DNA of 64,000 nucleotides from Escherichia phage JM10, in sequence record PP400777. One strand, 5' to 3'. Shown here piece by piece: positions 1,135-39,237 of the stretch. The position numbers and the translations under genes are program-made. Numbering within the stretch: position 1 is the stretch's first letter; each line of letters begins with the position of its first letter. The notes beneath the pieces were generated by a model. The model was given only the letters and a program-made list of their open reading frames with translations. It ran no database searches and had not been told where the DNA came from.

Positions 1135-2418
1135 ATGAGTAAAATCCAAAAATTATTGCGTGAATCTACAACGTCTACTAGCAACTCAATTGGTCGCCCA
1201 AATCTCGTTGCTTTGACTCGCGCTACGACTAAATTAATATATTCTGACATTGTAGCAACACAAAGAACTAATCAACCTGTTGCTGCTTTTTATGGTATCA
1301 AATATCTTAACCCAGATAACGAATTCACATTTAAAACTGGTGCTACTTATGCTGGCGAAGTTGGATATGTAGACCGAGAAAAAATTACTGAGCTCACAGA
1401 AGAATCAAAAGTCACACTAAATAAAGGCGATTTTTTCAAATATAATAATATCGTCTATAAAGTGTTAGAAGATACACCATTTGCAGATATTCAAGAAAGT
1501 GATCTAGAATTAGCTCTTCAGATTGCAGTCGTTCATTTAAAGGTACGGTTATTTTCAGATGCAGCGGTAACAAGCAAATTTGAAAGCTCTGGTAGCGAAA
1601 TTTCTGATGCAAGATTCCAGATTAATAAATGGCAAACTTCAGTCAAATCTCGCAAACTTAAAACTGGTCTCACGGTTGAATTAGCGCAAGATTTGGAAGC
1701 GAATGGATTTGATGCCCCTAACTTCTTAGAGGATTTGCTTGCTACTGAAATGGCTGATGAAATTAATAAAGATATTCTTCAGTCTTTAATTACTGTATCG
1801 AAACGTTATAAAGTTACTGGAATTACTGACACCGGATTTATTGACTTGAGCTATGCATCCGCTCCAGAAGCAGGTCGTTCATTATATCGAATGGTGTGTG
1901 AAATGGTATCACACATTCAAAAAGAGTCAACTTATACTGCAACGTTTTGTGTAGCCTCAGCTCGTGCAGCTGCTATTCTTGCTGCTTCCGGTTGGTTAAA
2001 ACATAAGCCAGAAGATGACAAGTATCTTTCACAAAATGCTTATGGATTCTTGGCAAATGGATTACCTCTTTACTGCGATACCAACAGTCCATTAGATTAT
2101 GTTATTGTTGGTGTTGTAGAAAATATCGGCGAAAAAGAAATTGTAGGGTCCATCTTTTATGCTCCATACACTGAAGGAGTAGATTTAGATGACCCGGAAC
2201 ATGTCGGTGCTTTTAAAGTTGTAGTTGATCCAGAAAGCTTGCAACCGTCTATTGGTTTATTGGTTAGATACGCTTTATCAGCAAATCCTTACACAGTAGC
2301 AAAAGATGAAAAAGAAGCGAGAATAATTGATGGCGGGGACATGGATAAAATGGCGGGACGTTCAGACTTGTCTGTTTTACTCGGTGTTAAGCTACCAAAA
2401 ATTATTGTTGATGAATAA
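1135..2418 (+). CDS. 24: head vertex protein gp24
   Basis: 427 aa; near-identical to recalled T4 gp24 in sequence and length (...SIGRPNLVALTRATTKLIYSDIVATQRTNQPVAAFYGIKYLNPDNEF...). Confidence 0.93.
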   Translation: MSKIQKLLRESTTSTSNSIGRPNLVALTRATTKLIYSDIVATQRTNQPVAAFYGIKYLNPDNEFTFKTGATYAGEVGYVDREKITELTEESKVTLNKGDFFKYNNIVYKVLEDTPFADIQESDLELALQIAVVHLKVRLFSDAAVTSKFESSGSEISDARFQINKWQTSVKSRKLKTGLTVELAQDLEANGFDAPNFLEDLLATEMADEINKDILQSLITVSKRYKVTGITDTGFIDLSYASAPEAGRSLYRMVCEMVSHIQKESTYTATFCVASARAAAILAASGWLKHKPEDDKYLSQNAYGFLANGLPLYCDTNSPLDYVIVGVVENIGEKEIVGSIFYAPYTEGVDLDDPEHVGAFKVVVDPESLQPSIGLLVRYALSANPYTVAKDEKEARIIDGGDMDKMAGRSDLSVLLGVKLPKIIVDE

Positions 2419-29986: not shown

Positions 29987-31120
<1,134 letters not shown>

Positions 31121-31137: not shown

Positions 31138-31167
31138 ATTGTACCACAATCCTTGTGGTATGTAAAC
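31138..31167 (-). promoter_or_regulatory. early promoter GTTTAC-N18-TACAAT with spacer palindrome CCACAAGGATTGTGG
   Basis: Minus strand reads GTTTAC ataccacaaggattgtgg TACAAT; the -35 hexamer overlaps the denA stop. Confidence 0.5.
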
Positions 31168-31577
31168 TACTTTTTCTTATGTTGGATATTCCAAGGCGGG
31201 TTGAACTTTTTGATAAAAAGCGGTTCTTCAAGGTCCATTGTTGCGATGGTCATTGAACCAAGTTCGTTGGTGACTGAAAGGTCAAAACATTGGCGGGCCC
31301 AGAATTCAACCTTTTTGCCTTGCATTAAGGCATCCAAAATCATAAGTGATTTTCTTGAATCTGAAGTCTGGTCTTTTCGATTTATGGCTGTTCGATAATA
31401 GTTAATGCGTTTCTTTAAATTCTTGGTTTTACCAATATACACAAGTTCGTCATCTATAGCAATAGCATATATGACATTTTTCTTATTAGGGACATCAACT
31501 GTTTTAATTGTTGCATCTTCTAATAGCTCCAATTCTGTATATTTAATAAAGGAATATTCGGCGGCGATATCTTTCAT
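31167..31577 (-). CDS. denA: endonuclease II (GIY-YIG-like)
   Basis: 136 aa; near-identical to recalled T4 DenA (...VIYAIAIDDELVYIGKTKNLKKRINYYR...). Confidence 0.92.
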   Translation of the reverse strand: MKDIAAEYSFIKYTELELLEDATIKTVDVPNKKNVIYAIAIDDELVYIGKTKNLKKRINYYRTAINRKDQTSDSRKSLMILDALMQGKKVEFWARQCFDLSVTNELGSMTIATMDLEEPLFIKKFNPPWNIQHKKK

Positions 31578-31603: not shown

Positions 31604-32106
31604 TTAGAAATATTTTTTGTATGAATTGATTACATTTTGGTCTACATCATTATCAATTTGTGCGACAAGATAAGAACTGATTTCAACTTCTTGTGGGGCT
31701 GCTTGAACCAAATCAGAGTTCAAATACTCACGAATCCATGGAATAGGATGACGAGTTGATACGTCTTTAAGAGGACATGGCAGACCACAACTACGCATAC
31801 GAGACACGGTAAGATAATCCACAAATTCACTTAGGATTTTAACATTTAGACCTGGAAGAGCACCATCTTTAAACAAGTGTTCAGCCCATTCTTTTTCTTG
31901 AGCGTTAACTTCCATGAAAATATCAACTGCTTCTTGTTCACACTCTTGAGCAATTTTGACCCATTCATCACCGTCTTCGCCATCTTGTAAAGCACGAATA
32001 ATATATTGAGTGCCCTTGAGGTGGAGCTGTTCATCACGAGCAATGAACTTCATAATCTTGGCATTACCTTCCATAATTTCCATGTTCTTATGGAAGTTAA
32101 AGGTAC
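31604..32106 (-). CDS. nrdB: ribonucleotide reductase beta subunit NrdB, exon 2
   Basis: Exon 2 encodes (C)TFNFHKNMEIMEGNAK... through the C-terminus; frame joins exon 1 across the intron to give about 392 aa. Confidence 0.85.
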
Positions 32107-33197
32107 CGTTATGTTCGATTGAGCTCGCTAATTCTCAACCCGTTCTCTTATGAACTGCTACATATTACTATGCAGACCAGACTATATCACAATCCCAGAG
32201 GGATTCTCCCCATTTCGAGTCGCTTGACCCTACGTCCGAAGACTAGTCGTTGAACCTTGCTTTGCAATTGTCGCCGTGCCATCGTTTATATGTTGATGGT
32301 GATAAATCTTTCTTATCACAATATGGACAATTCAATTGAATTCTATTTGGATTTAATTTACATCTGTCATTATGTTTTAGATAAAATCCAGGACCTTTAC
32401 CAATGTGACCGCAGAAATCACATGTGATTTCTTTTTGTGCAGGATGGGTTCCGTTCTTAACCATTTCTAATGTTTTTGCTGATGTTCTTTTCTTATGGTC
32501 TTCTGATAAGAAATGATGTGAACCGTCATTTACCCGTTTTGATTGAGTTTCTGACTGCATTTTACCACCGCAAAATACATGAGTACCTTCTTTTATAGCT
32601 GCAATATTGCGTTCTTTAACTTTTGCAATATGCTCAGCTTGTTGAAAATTATGTATACCTAATGCAACTCTATTTAAATTAGATTTACGCTGTATTTCAC
32701 CGTCTAAAAGATGAAATGTACCATTTTCTATCTTAGATTTAATAGAGGCAATATTTTTAGCTCGTACTTCAGGGATATTAAAAATCTGGATTTCTCTAGA
32801 TTTTGCGGCTTTAGAAGCTAATTCAGAAATTTCTTCAGGAGAATATTTCATTCTAAGCTTTATAGCATGACAAGCCTGGTAATCTTTTTGAGCTAAATGT
32901 ATATCATAATGTTCCTGTATAGAAAGGCACATCAAATTATCTAAATCATTATTTTCACGGTTACCGTCTTTATGATGGATTTCGTATGTTCTTCCATCAG
33001 AATCTTTAGGTATAGGTCCGTTAGCATCTATCCAAATTTTTCTATAGTTCAATTGTGCATCCTCTTAAAAGTATAATCATATTTATATTATACTAATTAA
33101 AGGTGCAAGCAAAACCTTGGCTGCTAGTTTTCCTATAAAGGACTTTCCAGCAATTAAAGGAGTTTTCGATAAACGTTACCGTTTAAAGGCGCATTTT
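32107..33197 (-). mobile_element. group I intron in nrdB (about 1091 nt) carrying I-TevIII
   Basis: Exon 1 ORF terminates in-frame directly after ...RFYVSFA while conserved NrdB sequence resumes about 1.1 kb downstream; exon 1 ends in U and the intron ends in G; an HNH endonuclease ORF lies inside. Confidence 0.8.
32243..33052 (-). CDS. I-TevIII: HNH homing endonuclease I-TevIII (full length, 269 aa)
   Basis: HNH motif EIHHKDGNRENNDLDNL and C-terminal Cys/His zinc-finger-like region; matches the intact I-TevIII recalled from phage RB3 rather than the truncated T4 form. Confidence 0.8.
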   Translation of the reverse strand: MNYRKIWIDANGPIPKDSDGRTYEIHHKDGNRENNDLDNLMCLSIQEHYDIHLAQKDYQACHAIKLRMKYSPEEISELASKAAKSREIQIFNIPEVRAKNIASIKSKIENGTFHLLDGEIQRKSNLNRVALGIHNFQQAEHIAKVKERNIAAIKEGTHVFCGGKMQSETQSKRVNDGSHHFLSEDHKKRTSAKTLEMVKNGTHPAQKEITCDFCGHIGKGPGFYLKHNDRCKLNPNRIQLNCPYCDKKDLSPSTYKRWHGDNCKARFND

Positions 33198-33873
33198 ACG
33201 CAAAAGATACATAAAAACGAATAGCTTCTAAGGCATTAATAACGTGCAAACAGAGGTAAAGAGATTTCATTAAAGCACGTTTAGCTTCGGCTTCTTGTTT
33301 AATAGCTCGGTTTAAACGAAAGTCGGCATCAGGAGATTCTTTAGCTAGTTCTACAAATTCTTTAGCATTTTCCCAATGACGAGTCTTGACTAGAACATCA
33401 TCGTAATATTTACCTATTGATTCAGCTCGTTTCATGATTGCTTCGTCTAATACAATCTCATCAAATACCTTAGATGGATCTGTATAAAGATTTCGCATAA
33501 TATGAGTATATGAACGAGAGTGAATAGTTTCACTGAAAGTCCATGTAGCAACCCATGTATCTAATGAAGGGTCTGAAAGCAATGACATAAGTACCGCAGA
33601 TGGTGCTCTACCTTGGATAGAATCTAATAATGATTGATACTTAAGGTTGTTGGTAAAGATGTCCTGTTGGAACTGTGGAAGCTTATTGAACTGCGCAGAG
33701 TCCAACATCAAGTTTACCTCTTCTGGACGCCAGAAAAACGACAATTGCTTTTCAATAAGTTCTTCAAAAACTTTATGACGCTGAATATCATACCGTGCGA
33801 GGCCAAGACCAGAACCAAAGAACATCGGTTCATTCAAAACATCGACTTGTTGTGTGTTAAAAACTGTACTCAT
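33198..33873 (-). CDS. nrdB: ribonucleotide reductase beta subunit NrdB, exon 1
   Basis: N-terminal 225 codons near-identical to recalled T4 NrdB (MSTVFNT...ALEAIRFYVSFA). Confidence 0.85.
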
Positions 33874-33926
33874 TATATTTTCTCACTTAGTTTAACTCAT
33901 CCATGAGTAAATTATAATCAAAAGTC

Positions 33927-36182
33927 TTAAAGCTTACAAGCAGAACAATCTTCAGCTTTTGGAGTTTCTAGTTCATAGTCGTCAGTACCAGAACCGTCGC
34001 GAGTATTATGATAGTAGAGGTTTTTACCGCCAAAGTACCAGAAGTAAAGCAAATCGTCAAGCATTACAGACATTGGCACTTTACCTTTCTCAAATACTGC
34101 AGGGTCATAGTAAGTATTAGCAGAAGCAGATTGGCACACCCATTTCAACATGATAGCAACTTGGGTCAAATAAGGTTTATTACCTTTCTTAGCAAGTTTC
34201 CACGCATAGTCGTAAAGACTCATGTTATGTTCGATATTAGGAACAACCTGTCGGAAGTTGCCTTCTTTAGATTCTTTAATACTTACTGGACCGCGTGGGG
34301 GCTCAATCCCGTTTGTAGAGTTTGATACTTGACTGCTTGACTCACAAGGCATGAGTGCAGACAACGTTGAGTTACGAATTCCATGTTCTTTGAGTTCAGC
34401 TCGAAGTTCTTCCCAGTCACAGACGTAGTTCGGGGCTGCGATTTGGTCAATCTTTTTATTGTACCAGTCGATAGGTAATTCGCCTCTAGACCATTTAGTG
34501 TCTGAATAATACTCGCAACATCCTTTTTCTTTGGCGAGTTTGATTGATGCTTTGATAAGGCCATATTGCAATCTCTCAAACAATTCATGAGTCAAATCGT
34601 TAGCGTCTTCATATGAAGCAAAGTTGCTTGCTAACCATGCAGCATAGTTCGTCACACCAACACCGAGGTTTCGACGCTTTTTAGCTTTTAAAGCTTCTGG
34701 AACCGGATAATCTTGATAGTCTAACAGGTTATCAAGTGCACGTACTTGTACTTCAGCAAGTTCATTAATTTTATCTTGGTCCTGCCAATCAAAGTTATCT
34801 AACACGAATGCAGACAACGTGCACAACCCGATTTCAGCATCAGGACTATTCACATCATTAGTTGGAATAGCGATTTCACAACATAAGTTACTCTGACGAA
34901 TTGGAGCTTTTTCACGAATAAATGGAGTGTAGTTGTTCGTGTTATCAACGAATTGCGGATAAATTCGAGCAGTACCAGAGCGTTCAGTCATGAACAATTC
35001 AAAGAGTTCTAGTGCTTTGATTCTTTTCTTTCTGATTGTTGGGTCTTTTTCAGCTTTCTCATAAAGCTCACGGAATTTATCTTGATCTTCAAAGAACGAG
35101 TAATACAGTTCGCCTGACATTTCGTGAGGGCTAAATAAAGTAATATAATCATTTTTACCAAGGCGTTCCATCATAAGGTCATTAATCTGAATTCCGTAGT
35201 CCATATGTCGAATACGGTTTTCATCCACGCCTTTGTTATTTTTCAGAACCAATAGGTTCTCTACTTCTAAGTGCCACATTGGATAATACGCTGTAGCAGC
35301 ACCACCACGAATACCGCCTTGAGAACAAGATTTTACTGCAGTTTGGAAATGTTTCCAGAATGGAATAACACCCGTATGTCGAACTTCACCCATACCGATC
35401 TTAGAACCTTCTGCACGAAGCATACCAACGTTGATGCCGATACCGGCTCGTTTAGAAATATATTCAATAATTGATGCTGAAGTTTTGTTAATAGATTTTA
35501 AGGAATCACCGGCTTCAATAACTACACAACTAGAGAACTGGCGAGTTGGAGTACGAGCACCTGCCATAATTGGGGTTGGCAATGAAACTTGATGAGTAGA
35601 AACGGCATCATAAAAACGAATAATATGTTTCAAACGGTCATGAGTTTCGTCTTGGTGTAAGGCCATGCCAATAGCCATGATAGCAAACTGTGGAGTTTCA
35701 TAAATCTTCCCAGTTGTTTTATCTTTAACTAGATATTTTTCTTTAAGCTGCATAGCACCAGCATAAGTCAGGTCAAAGTCTCGTTCATGTTTAATCTGTG
35801 AATCGAGATAAATGATTTCTTCTGCTGAATATTGAGACAACAACTCAGGATCGTATTTGCCTTCATTAACACAGTAAGAAATATGGTCGATAAAAGCAGG
35901 CGGTTCAAACTGCCCATATACATCTTTACGAAGTGCAAACATTAGCCCTTTGGCGGCGACATAATGATAATCAGGTTCTTCGACAGAAATCAAGTTAGCT
36001 GCAACTTTAATACAAATCTTCTGAATATCTTTGGTGCTCATCCCATCGACAAGATGGGTCTTAATTTCTTCGTATAATTCATATGGGTCGATTTGTGTTC
36101 CTTCACATTGCCAAGTTAAGACTTGAATAATTTTCTGTGCATCAAAATTTTGGGATACACCACTGCTCTTAGTTACTTGCAT
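33927..36182 (-). CDS. nrdA: ribonucleotide reductase alpha subunit NrdA
   Basis: 751 aa; class Ia RNR large-subunit features; synteny nrdB-nrdA-td. Confidence 0.95.
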   Translation of the reverse strand: MQVTKSSGVSQNFDAQKIIQVLTWQCEGTQIDPYELYEEIKTHLVDGMSTKDIQKICIKVAANLISVEEPDYHYVAAKGLMFALRKDVYGQFEPPAFIDHISYCVNEGKYDPELLSQYSAEEIIYLDSQIKHERDFDLTYAGAMQLKEKYLVKDKTTGKIYETPQFAIMAIGMALHQDETHDRLKHIIRFYDAVSTHQVSLPTPIMAGARTPTRQFSSCVVIEAGDSLKSINKTSASIIEYISKRAGIGINVGMLRAEGSKIGMGEVRHTGVIPFWKHFQTAVKSCSQGGIRGGAATAYYPMWHLEVENLLVLKNNKGVDENRIRHMDYGIQINDLMMERLGKNDYITLFSPHEMSGELYYSFFEDQDKFRELYEKAEKDPTIRKKRIKALELFELFMTERSGTARIYPQFVDNTNNYTPFIREKAPIRQSNLCCEIAIPTNDVNSPDAEIGLCTLSAFVLDNFDWQDQDKINELAEVQVRALDNLLDYQDYPVPEALKAKKRRNLGVGVTNYAAWLASNFASYEDANDLTHELFERLQYGLIKASIKLAKEKGCCEYYSDTKWSRGELPIDWYNKKIDQIAAPNYVCDWEELRAELKEHGIRNSTLSALMPCESSSQVSNSTNGIEPPRGPVSIKESKEGNFRQVVPNIEHNMSLYDYAWKLAKKGNKPYLTQVAIMLKWVCQSASANTYYDPAVFEKGKVPMSVMLDDLLYFWYFGGKNLYYHNTRDGSGTDDYELETPKAEDCSACKL

Positions 36183-36525: not shown

Positions 36526-36837
36526 TTATACCGCCATTTTAGCTTTGATAGCTGGATGAGATTCGTAATTTTTAAGAACGAAATCAGAATGTGTCATCGT
36601 TCCAGTAACCCAGTCCATTTGGATTTTTGTAGGCCAATTCTCAAAATTACTAGGCCAATTAATTTCAAGAGAACACAACTCTTTAGGTTCACGACGAAGA
36701 ACTTCTTTGCATTGTTCTACATGATTGCTGTAGATATGTGTGTTGCCGCCTGAGAACACTAAATCACCTGGGATAAGGTTACACATCTTCGCTACAATAT
36801 GCGTCAAGGCAGCGTACGAGGCAATGTTGAACGGTAG
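36526..36837 (-). CDS. td: thymidylate synthase, exon 2
   Basis: Encodes LPFNIASYAALTHIVAKMCNLIPGDL... to the C-terminus; joins exon 1 to give 286 aa, as in T4 Td. Confidence 0.9.
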   Translation of the reverse strand, partial: LPFNIASYAALTHIVAKMCNLIPGDLVFSGGNTHIYSNHVEQCKEVLRREPKELCSLEINWPSNFENWPTKIQMDWVTGTMTHSDFVLKNYESHPAIKAKMAV

Positions 36838-37853
36838 CATTATGTTCAGATAAGGTCGTTAATCTTATCCCGGAATTATATCCAGCTGCATGTCACCATG
36901 CAGAGCAGACTATATCTCCAACTTGTTAAAGCAAGTTGTCTATCGTTTCGAGTCACTTGACCCTACTCCCTAAAGGGATAGTCGTTAGGCATTTATGTAG
37001 AACCAATTCCACTTATCAGATTTTACACGGTAAGTAACTAATCCTGATGAAATTTCAAAATGTCTAGCCGCATCGGCTGCACATTCAAAAATAATCCCAT
37101 CGCATGAAATCTTTTTGATGTTAGCTGGCTTTTTGCCTTTCATCTTTTCAGATAGTTTAGTTTTAGTTTTTTCTGAATGTTTGTGATTAAAGAACGGGTT
37201 ATTTTCACCTGAACGTTTTCGGCACTTTCCACAAGTATCGGCCGAAGATGGTATGCGAACACCGCATTTACAAAACTTGTGGTTTTCTGGATTCCATCGG
37301 CCATTTTTACTTCCGTGTTTACCATAAAGAGCTTTCCGACCGTCAGGACCAAGCTTAAGCATCTTAGCTTTAACAGTTTCAGCTCGTTTCTTAGCAATTT
37401 CTTCTTTTAATGGATGATTTGAAAGCACATCGCCAAAAGACGCATCAGCAATATTATATCCATTAATTTTAGAATTTAGCTCTTTAATCCAAAAATTTTC
37501 TCGTTCAATAATCAAATCTTTCTCATATGTAATTTCTTCCAGTACAGAGCATTCAAAAACATTACCATGTTTATTAAAAGACCTTTGAAATTTTATAGAA
37601 GAGTGAACACCGTTTTCAAGGTCTTTAAAATGTCTCTTCCATCTTTTCTCAAAATCTTTAGCACTTCCAACATACACTTTACCGTTTAAAGTGTTTTTAA
37701 TCTGATAAATTCCGCTTTTCATAAACACCTCTTTTTATATAGAAGTATTTATTAAAGGGTAGTCCTACAATTTAGCACGGGATTGTCTACTAGAGAGGTC
37801 CCCCGTTTAGATAGATTACAAGTATAAGTCACCTTATACCTAGGCCTAAATTA
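36838..37853 (-). mobile_element. group I intron in td (1016 nt) carrying I-TevI
   Basis: Intron 5' end TAATTTAGGCCTAGGTATAAGGTGACTTATACTTGTAATC... and 3' end ...GAACATAATG closely match the recalled T4 td intron; exon 1 ends in U, intron ends in G. Confidence 0.9.
36985..37728 (-). CDS. I-TevI: GIY-YIG homing endonuclease I-TevI
   Basis: 247-aa ORF; GIYQIKNTLNGKVYVGSAKDFEKRWKRH GIY-YIG module and C-terminal DNA-binding region; near-identical to recalled T4 I-TevI. Confidence 0.92.
   Translation of the reverse strand: MFMKSGIYQIKNTLNGKVYVGSAKDFEKRWKRHFKDLENGVHSSIKFQRSFNKHGNVFECSVLEEITYEKDLIIERENFWIKELNSKINGYNIADASFGDVLSNHPLKEEIAKKRAETVKAKMLKLGPDGRKALYGKHGSKNGRWNPENHKFCKCGVRIPSSADTCGKCRKRSGENNPFFNHKHSEKTKTKLSEKMKGKKPANIKKISCDGIIFECAADAARHFEISSGLVTYRVKSDKWNWFYINA

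Positions 37854-39237
<1,384 letters not shown>

Follow-up and report, generated by a model that had tools for sequence, protein, structure and literature searches.

An RB3-type nrdB group I intron with a full-length I-TevIII gene in the Mosigvirus-like Escherichia phage JM10

Introduction

A group I intron carrying the gene for the homing endonuclease I-TevIII was reportedly described in nrdB of phage RB3 by Eddy and Gold in 1991. In the RB3 records (X59078.1 and KM606994.1), the nrdB annotation is a join of two pieces that enclose I-TevIII. The RB3 enzyme is a dimer which cuts at -14/-16 and makes the intron mobile (PMC1865063, Robbins et al. 2007), and its mutagenesis has shown that H26, H27, N39 and H48 are required for catalysis, while the zinc fingers (C211, C214, C242 and C245) are required for DNA binding (PMC1865063). 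In plasmid-to-phage crosses, homing of the RB3 intron exceeded that of the inactive T4 donor more than 40-fold.

The nrdB intron of T4 is a shorter relative. The T4 record (NC_000866) also gives nrdB as a two-piece join and describes I-TevIII as defective by deletion, adding that RB3 has the active form, and the mobility of the T4 nrdB intron depends on MobE (PMC2790892). Both the T4 and the RB3 nrdB introns have been described as self-splicing (PMC2988022, PMC2790892). For the three intron endonucleases of T4, middle and late promoters have been mapped, and the inhibitory hairpin ahead of them forms solely on transcripts that begin upstream. A homing-site-like operator over the promoter was demonstrated for I-TevI only and proposed for I-TevIII (PMC2988022).

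In this study, we analysed a stretch of 64,000 nucleotides from Escherichia phage JM10 (PP400777), referred to below as the window. An earlier note, made from the sequence alone, had proposed that nrdB is interrupted between 32107 and 33197 by a group I intron encoding a full-length I-TevIII. The insert is almost certainly an RB3-type nrdB group I intron with a full-length I-TevIII gene, carried here by a Mosigvirus-like T-even phage. The element itself is already known and is common in sequenced T-even-like phages; its surroundings in the JM10 genome are also described.

Results

Interruption of nrdB and restoration of its reading frame

The insert in nrdB is 1091 nt long (33197..32107), so the coordinates proposed earlier proved exact; the strand, which had been left out, is the minus strand (Table 1). 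The exon-1 ORF (33873..33196) has the C-terminus ...RFYVSFA (...ALEAIRFYVSFA) followed by TAA, and the nrdB frame picks up again at 32106, after a Cys codon split T/GT by the intron, with TFNFHKNMEIMEGNAK, in line with the stop and the restart about 1.1 kb further on that had been read from the sequence. The 5' boundary (33198/33197) reads ...UCUUUUGCGU/AAAAUGCGCC... and the 3' boundary (32107/32106) reads ...CGAACAUAACG/GUACCUUUAACUUCCAUAAG..., with exon 2 beginning GUACC. When 33873..33198 was joined to 32106..31604, an in-frame ORF of 1179 nt was obtained, which encodes an NrdB of 392 aa. The predicted ligated-exon junction across 33198/32106 is ...TTTTGCGT/GTACCTTT, and the predicted junction in the spliced RNA is ...UUUGCGU/GUACCUUU.

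The joined NrdB and that of phage JK42 (392 aa), which has no intron in nrdB, aligned with zero gaps and 94% identity. The Pfam profile Ribonuc_red_sm gave a single continuous match to the joined protein (positions 9-271, 124 bits), compared with 69 and 42 bits for the separate pieces (profile positions 9-141 and 177-271). As the exons join in frame, the alignment with JK42 is free of gaps and the Pfam match is continuous, a frameshift or a chance break of nrdB is excluded. A frameshift or sequencing error had been named in the earlier note as one of the findings that would overturn its reading. No evidence was found in support of a sequencing or assembly artefact, and such an origin is hardly conceivable for a 1091-nt insert that has precise boundaries, leaves two frames that join perfectly and is found, at 99% identity or higher, in dozens of phage genomes sequenced independently of one another.

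Downstream of nrdB lie denA and rnlA (Table 1), an arrangement which is the usual T-even gene order.

Table 1. Positions of the nrdB intron, its helices, its ORF and neighbouring features in the window
Feature	Position	Strand	Remarks
nrdB exon 1	33873..33198	-	225 codons and base 1 of the Cys codon; Pfam Ribonuc_red_sm positions 9-141
RB3-type tract	32076..33375	-	Intron plus flanking exon: 178 nt on the exon-1 side (33375..33198), 31 nt on the exon-2 side (32106..32076)
Group I intron	32107..33197	-	1091 nt; starts AAAAUGCGCC, ends ...CAUAACG; terminal G at 32107; phase 1
P1	33189..33201	-	Exon GCGU (33201..33198) with intron GCGC (33192..33189); 4 bp, invariant
P2 hairpin	33171..33184	-	AAACG-GUAA-CGUUU; 3 of 5 pairs compensatory among variants
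P3 5' strand	33162..33157	-	Invariant among variants
P4-P5 domain	33153..33121	-	Conserved P and Q elements AAUUGCUGGAAAG / CUAGCAGCC; invariant
P6 5' strand	33114..33109	-	
Putative I-TevIII operator	33114..33095	-	Intron positions 84-103; 17/20 match to the spliced exon junction (homing site)
Hairpin	33061..33103	-	Ribosome-binding site of the ORF, AAGAGG (33066..33061), paired with upstream CCUUU
I-TevIII ORF	32243..33052	-	Encodes 269 aa; starts with TTG, like the RB3 ORF; contains an HNH domain and two zinc fingers
3' core half	32178..32265	-	Catalytic core
P6 3' strand	32265..32260	-	
P7 5' strand	32249..32244	-	
P7.1	32243..32234	-	
P7.2	32230..32217	-	
P3 3' strand	32211..32206	-	
P8	32205..32191	-	
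P7 3' strand	32184..32178	-	
Peripheral 3' helices	32117..32175	-	
P9	32175..32158	-	
P9.1	32155..32142	-	
P9.2	32140..32117	-	
nrdB exon 2	32106..31604	-	Starts with the last two bases (GT) of the Cys codon; continues as TFNFHKNMEIMEGNAK... up to the stop
denA	31167..31577	-	Endonuclease II, 136 aa, GIY-YIG
rnlA	29987..31111	-	RNA ligase 1, 374 aa
td intron	36841..37850	-	Second group I intron; exon 1 38402..37851 ends ...VDVFLG; exon 2 about 36840..36526
td intron ORF	37728..36985	-	247 aa, I-TevI-like, GIY-YIG-type N-terminus

Identity of the insert

The insert is identical to the RB3 nrdB intron (X59078.1, KM606994.1) at 1088 of 1091 positions (99.7%), and only one of the three base changes is non-synonymous. 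The gene, the insertion site, the length and the 269-aa ORF with its TTG start are all shared with RB3. With the T4 intron, it shares the insertion site, the RNA core and the region of the late promoter and hairpin, and 590 of the 598 aligned bases are identical (98.7%). The T4 intron, at 598 nt, is without 493 nt (approximately JM10 intron positions 210-702), leaving a 97-aa remnant from which the HNH domain is gone. The statement in the earlier note that T4 has a shorter intron with an inactive I-TevIII therefore agrees with the T4 sequence as well as with the literature (PMC1865063, PMC2988022, PMC2790892). The endpoints of the T4 deletion lie in an imperfect direct repeat, GAAGAnCATA, represented in JM10 by GAAGAACATA (32994..32985) and GAAGACCATA (32503..32494).

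When the insert was compared by megablast with 50,697 phage records, 128 matched, and in 84 of these the match took in 80% of the sequence or more; the full-length form of the intron is found in at least 84 public phage genomes. All of the sequence-level features that define the RB3-type nrdB intron and I-TevIII family are present in JM10, save for the curated Rfam score.

RNA core of the intron

With Rfam at its gathering threshold, there were zero matches in the whole 64-kb window. With relaxed filters, the Intron_gpI model (RF00028) aligned to 32398..32158 with 33.9 bits (E = 1.5e-6), and the R element (GUUCAACGACUA) and the S element (GAUAUAGUCU) fitted the consensus with high posterior probability. 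This match to the group I model, a check that the earlier note had suggested, lies in the 3' core and falls below the gathering score of 50. This shortfall was considered as an argument against an intron and was dropped, as the proven nrdB intron of T4 scored 35.7 bits with the same model, likewise below 50 and as a partial alignment. The shortfall is therefore a limit of the model rather than of the element, the score being pulled down by the large ORF insert and the extra P7.1 and P7.2 helices.

The ORF-less cores of seven distinct variants were aligned, and a P1-P9.2 model was drawn with a P3/P7 pseudoknot and the subgroup-IA helices P7.1 and P7.2, the subgroup being the label used in the annotation of the T4 record. 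The position of each helix in the window was confirmed on the sequence. Across the 79 pairs of P1-P9.2 and the hairpin ahead of the ORF, all 553 cells (79 pairs in 7 variants) held standard pairs, a figure that is biased because the helix model was drawn from the JM10 sequence; the compensatory changes are free of this bias. Two-sided, compensatory changes were found in 8 pairs (3 in P2, 2 in P9.2 and 1 each in P7.2, P9 and the hairpin), a number reached by 0 of 500 shuffles, and the slid controls had 0 such pairs. P6 and P8 showed one-sided changes that preserve pairing, and P1, P3, P4, P5 and P7 were invariant across the 7 variants, so that covariation is uninformative for them.

U33198, the last base of exon 1, pairs as a U.G wobble with G33192 of the internal guide sequence in P1, at the 5' splice site. 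The I-TevIII ORF is looped out of P6, and its final two sense codons (AAC GAC) together with the UAG stop fall in the 5' strand of P7 (CGACUA). A P10 pairing of the guide region with the first bases of exon 2 was sought by eye; none was convincing, and P10 was omitted from the model.

An interrupted nrdB could also be produced without RNA splicing, if a free-standing HNH gene had split nrdB into two polypeptides that are translated separately and then reassemble. Such genes-in-pieces have reportedly been described for nrdA and mobE of Aeromonas phage Aeh1. In JM10, the exon-1 frame does stop at TAA, an ATG at 32083 (MEIMEGNAK) opens a 159-aa ORF in exon 2, and many automatic annotations list two nrdB CDSs. 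Nevertheless, separate translation of the pieces would lose the conserved CTFNFHKN segment, while the insert has every hallmark of a group I intron, together with a set of helices supported by covariation, and is nearly identical to the T4 intron, which is self-splicing according to the literature. In addition, the 309-nt versions that carry no ORF keep the RNA core, which can be understood only with selection acting on the RNA itself. We therefore regard separate translation as very improbable and a spliced group I intron as the appropriate description. As the JM10 intron is 98.7-99.7% identical to those of T4 and RB3, guanosine-dependent self-splicing of its RNA would be expected.

A second group I intron was observed in td (Table 1), where Intron_gpI gave 36.2 bits at 36886..37116, below the gathering score. 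In both T4 and JM10, the td intron with I-TevI resembles the nrdB intron in occupying a nucleotide-metabolism gene, in looping its ORF out of the core and in having a similar 3' core. It differs in its GIY-YIG endonuclease, its target gene and its 5' half.

The I-TevIII ORF

The 269-aa ORF carries the HNH motif EIHHKDGNRENNDLDNL at residues 24-40, within a match to Pfam HNH_3 (E = 6e-13, residues 4-48), and two C-terminal CX2CX12-13HX3C clusters, which start from residues 211 (C211/C214) and 242 (C242/C245). Both the HNH motif and the Cys/His clusters had been recognised in the earlier note, and its assignment of the intact form to the RB3 type also holds, since the protein differs from the RB3 enzyme (CAA41802.1 / AIT72961.1) by one residue only, D23Y. 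All of the residues required by the mutagenesis of the RB3 enzyme (H26, H27, N39 and H48, and C211, C214, C242 and C245) are kept. The JM10 protein is therefore apparently intact and may be an active homing endonuclease, as was suggested before.

The D23Y substitution lies three residues ahead of the catalytic H26. Tyr23 is also found in G2469, in PTE-Eco05 and in SEA1, whose copy is 90% diverged, which makes D23Y a common natural allele, judged from these sequences, rather than a private lesion. Several phages matched the JM10 protein at 99.6% tblastn identity, with a single mismatch that was read as the TTG start codon, and their I-TevIII appears to be the same as that of JM10. By tblastn, 87 records had at least 80% of I-TevIII, and about 40 had only the T4-type or a similarly short C-terminal remnant.

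When the I-TevIII sequence was searched against the PDB, no solved relative was found. At residues 74-114, a marginal Pfam match to FlgM (anti-sigma-28; 26.2 bits, the cutoff being 25) was taken as spurious, and is probably caused by a linker rich in Lys, Ser and Ala.

Expression signals ahead of the ORF

The ribosome-binding site of the ORF would be sequestered in the hairpin listed in Table 1, the loop of which holds TATAAATA (33087..33080), the T4-type late-promoter consensus. The hairpin has a predicted energy of -9.8 kcal/mol and is marginally above its shuffles in stability (z = -1.67), which is weak evidence when taken alone; its one compensatory pair is in SG1. In the window, TATAAATA occurs 13 times against 7.7 expected, which is no significant enrichment. 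The assignment of a putative late promoter is therefore drawn from homology to T4 and not from the occurrence of the motif.

In U5 and SG1, the loop of the hairpin has GUAUAAUAUGAUUAUAC instead of TATAAATA, and an alternative hairpin of U5 has been mentioned (PMC2988022). These copies of the intron may express their ORF differently, if at all.

Mosaic exons around the insertion site

The best 10-kb match of the window was to Mosigvirus mar005p1 (G2469), at 97.3% identity, and in 50-nt bins the exons match those of JK42 and G2469 at 100% across most of nrdB. Compared with RB3, the intron is 99.7% identical, while exon 1 and exon 2 are 86% and 77% identical, this range of 77-86% applying outside a tract from -178 to +31. 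Within this tract, which comprises about 210 bp of exon in all (Table 1), JM10 differs from RB3 by one mismatch (in 33375..33198).

Between -170 and -75, JM10 differs from JK42 at dozens of positions. G2469, in which the intron is also present, retains Mosigvirus sequence to about -75 and near the junction differs from the intron-less JK42 only at -4, -1 and +2. The RB3-type tract looks like a co-conversion tract of homing, as exon co-conversion is expected from double-strand-break repair (PMC2988022), and the comparison with G2469 suggests that the homing events in the two phages were separate or were resolved differently. On balance, we lean towards the view that the intron came recently, by homing, from a Tequatrovirus (RB3-like) donor into the Mosigvirus-like lineage of JM10, in an event which was independent of that in G2469, a phage of the same species, or was resolved unlike it.

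RB3 is a Tequatrovirus with mobE between nrdA and nrdB, whereas JM10 is Mosigvirus-like and has no mobE. The spacer between nrdA (36182..33927) and nrdB in JM10 is only 53 nt (33874..33926), and mobE is absent from it, as it is in RB69, JK42 and G2469; T4 has mobE at this position, as RB3 does. The RB3-type tract also stops short of the 5' end of nrdB. With no mobE acquired and a tract of this extent, homing initiated by I-TevIII would fit better than homing initiated by MobE (PMC2790892).

The JM10 copy of I-TevIII could nevertheless be inactive or weakened, through D23Y or the loss of a partner, in which case the intron would splice but be a stagnant passenger like that of T4. This would be in keeping with the position so close to H26 of D23Y, the one residue by which the protein departs from the RB3 enzyme that was tested, with the frequent decay of the ORF among introns of this family (as in those of 598, 592, 420 and 309 nt), and with a window that has no mobE to mobilise the intron in trans. 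Against this, the ORF is of full length with every residue proven by mutagenesis kept, and apparently identical proteins are encoded by several phages. Y23 occurs in many phages, including the diverged SEA1, so that it may be the older allele and the Asp of RB3 the variant. The RB3-type exon tract, centred on the cut site of I-TevIII, also fits homing driven by the enzyme. We consider an inactive copy to be unlikely, and prefer the reading that JM10 retains a potentially active I-TevIII.

Other patches of exon 1, at 33773..33674 and 33473..33376 (gene positions 101-200 and 401-498), are also unlike JK42 and G2469 (78-88%), and the nrdB stretches 151-200 and 401-500 are nearer to RB69 (94-96%), which points to further mosaicism in nrdB that is unrelated to the tract next to the intron.

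Size variants of the nrdB intron

Among the variants, the long forms are 1083 nt in U5, 1093 nt in S16 and SEA1, and 1088 nt in Bp7. The short forms are 598 nt in T4, 592 nt in AV114, 420 nt in SG1 and 309 nt in DCP80, the last being a natural version that has no ORF and keeps the RNA core whole.

In JM10, the I-TevIII ORF is flanked by a 7-nt direct repeat, ACAATTG (33056..33050 and 32271..32265). The 309-nt intron of DCP80 (PQ671644.1, 1501..1809) corresponds to an exact deletion between these two repeats, which suggests that the repeat pair is a route by which the I-TevIII ORF can be lost. In the same record, the region of nrdB exon 1 (1296..1500) has no annotated CDS but contains 60 nt or more of exon-1-like sequence, and a DNA primase gene on the opposite strand lies only approximately 205 nt from the intron. 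Possible explanations are a rearrangement, truncation of nrdB or a fault of the assembly.

Discussion

Based on homology to the T4 and RB3 experiments, we infer that splicing, promoter use, cleavage and homing occur in JM10 as follows. Transcription of nrdB would run through the intron, and the RNA would form a core of helices P1-P9.2, in which the ORF loops out from P6. An external guanosine would attack after U33198, and the 3'-OH of exon 1, once free, would attack after the terminal G at 32107, joining T/GT and giving the 392-aa NrdB. Late in infection, transcripts would start from the late promoter of the intron itself. As these would be without the 5' arm of the hairpin, the ribosome-binding site would be exposed and I-TevIII could be translated. 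The enzyme would then be expected, by the same homology, to cleave and home, with double-strand-break repair copying the intron and some of the flanking exon into the cut genome.

Recognising the intron is of value for annotation, as many deposited genomes show this locus as two nrdB fragments and a "hypothetical protein". It gives the correct 392-aa NrdB and flags what is apparently, from its sequence, an active homing endonuclease.

The size series of 1091, 598, 592, 420 and 309 nt reflects the gain-and-decay cycle of homing endonuclease genes, and the mosaic of the exons would be a clear example from nature of co-conversion with homing across T-even genera. Both are textbook phenomena, and the cross-genus mosaic tract is the only mildly new aspect. 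RB69 and T4, the type members of the two phage groups, are reported not to recombine (PMC6024577). If the homing event proposed for JM10 is true, it would mean that the intron has been transferred repeatedly across genera, between phage groups whose type members reportedly do not recombine.
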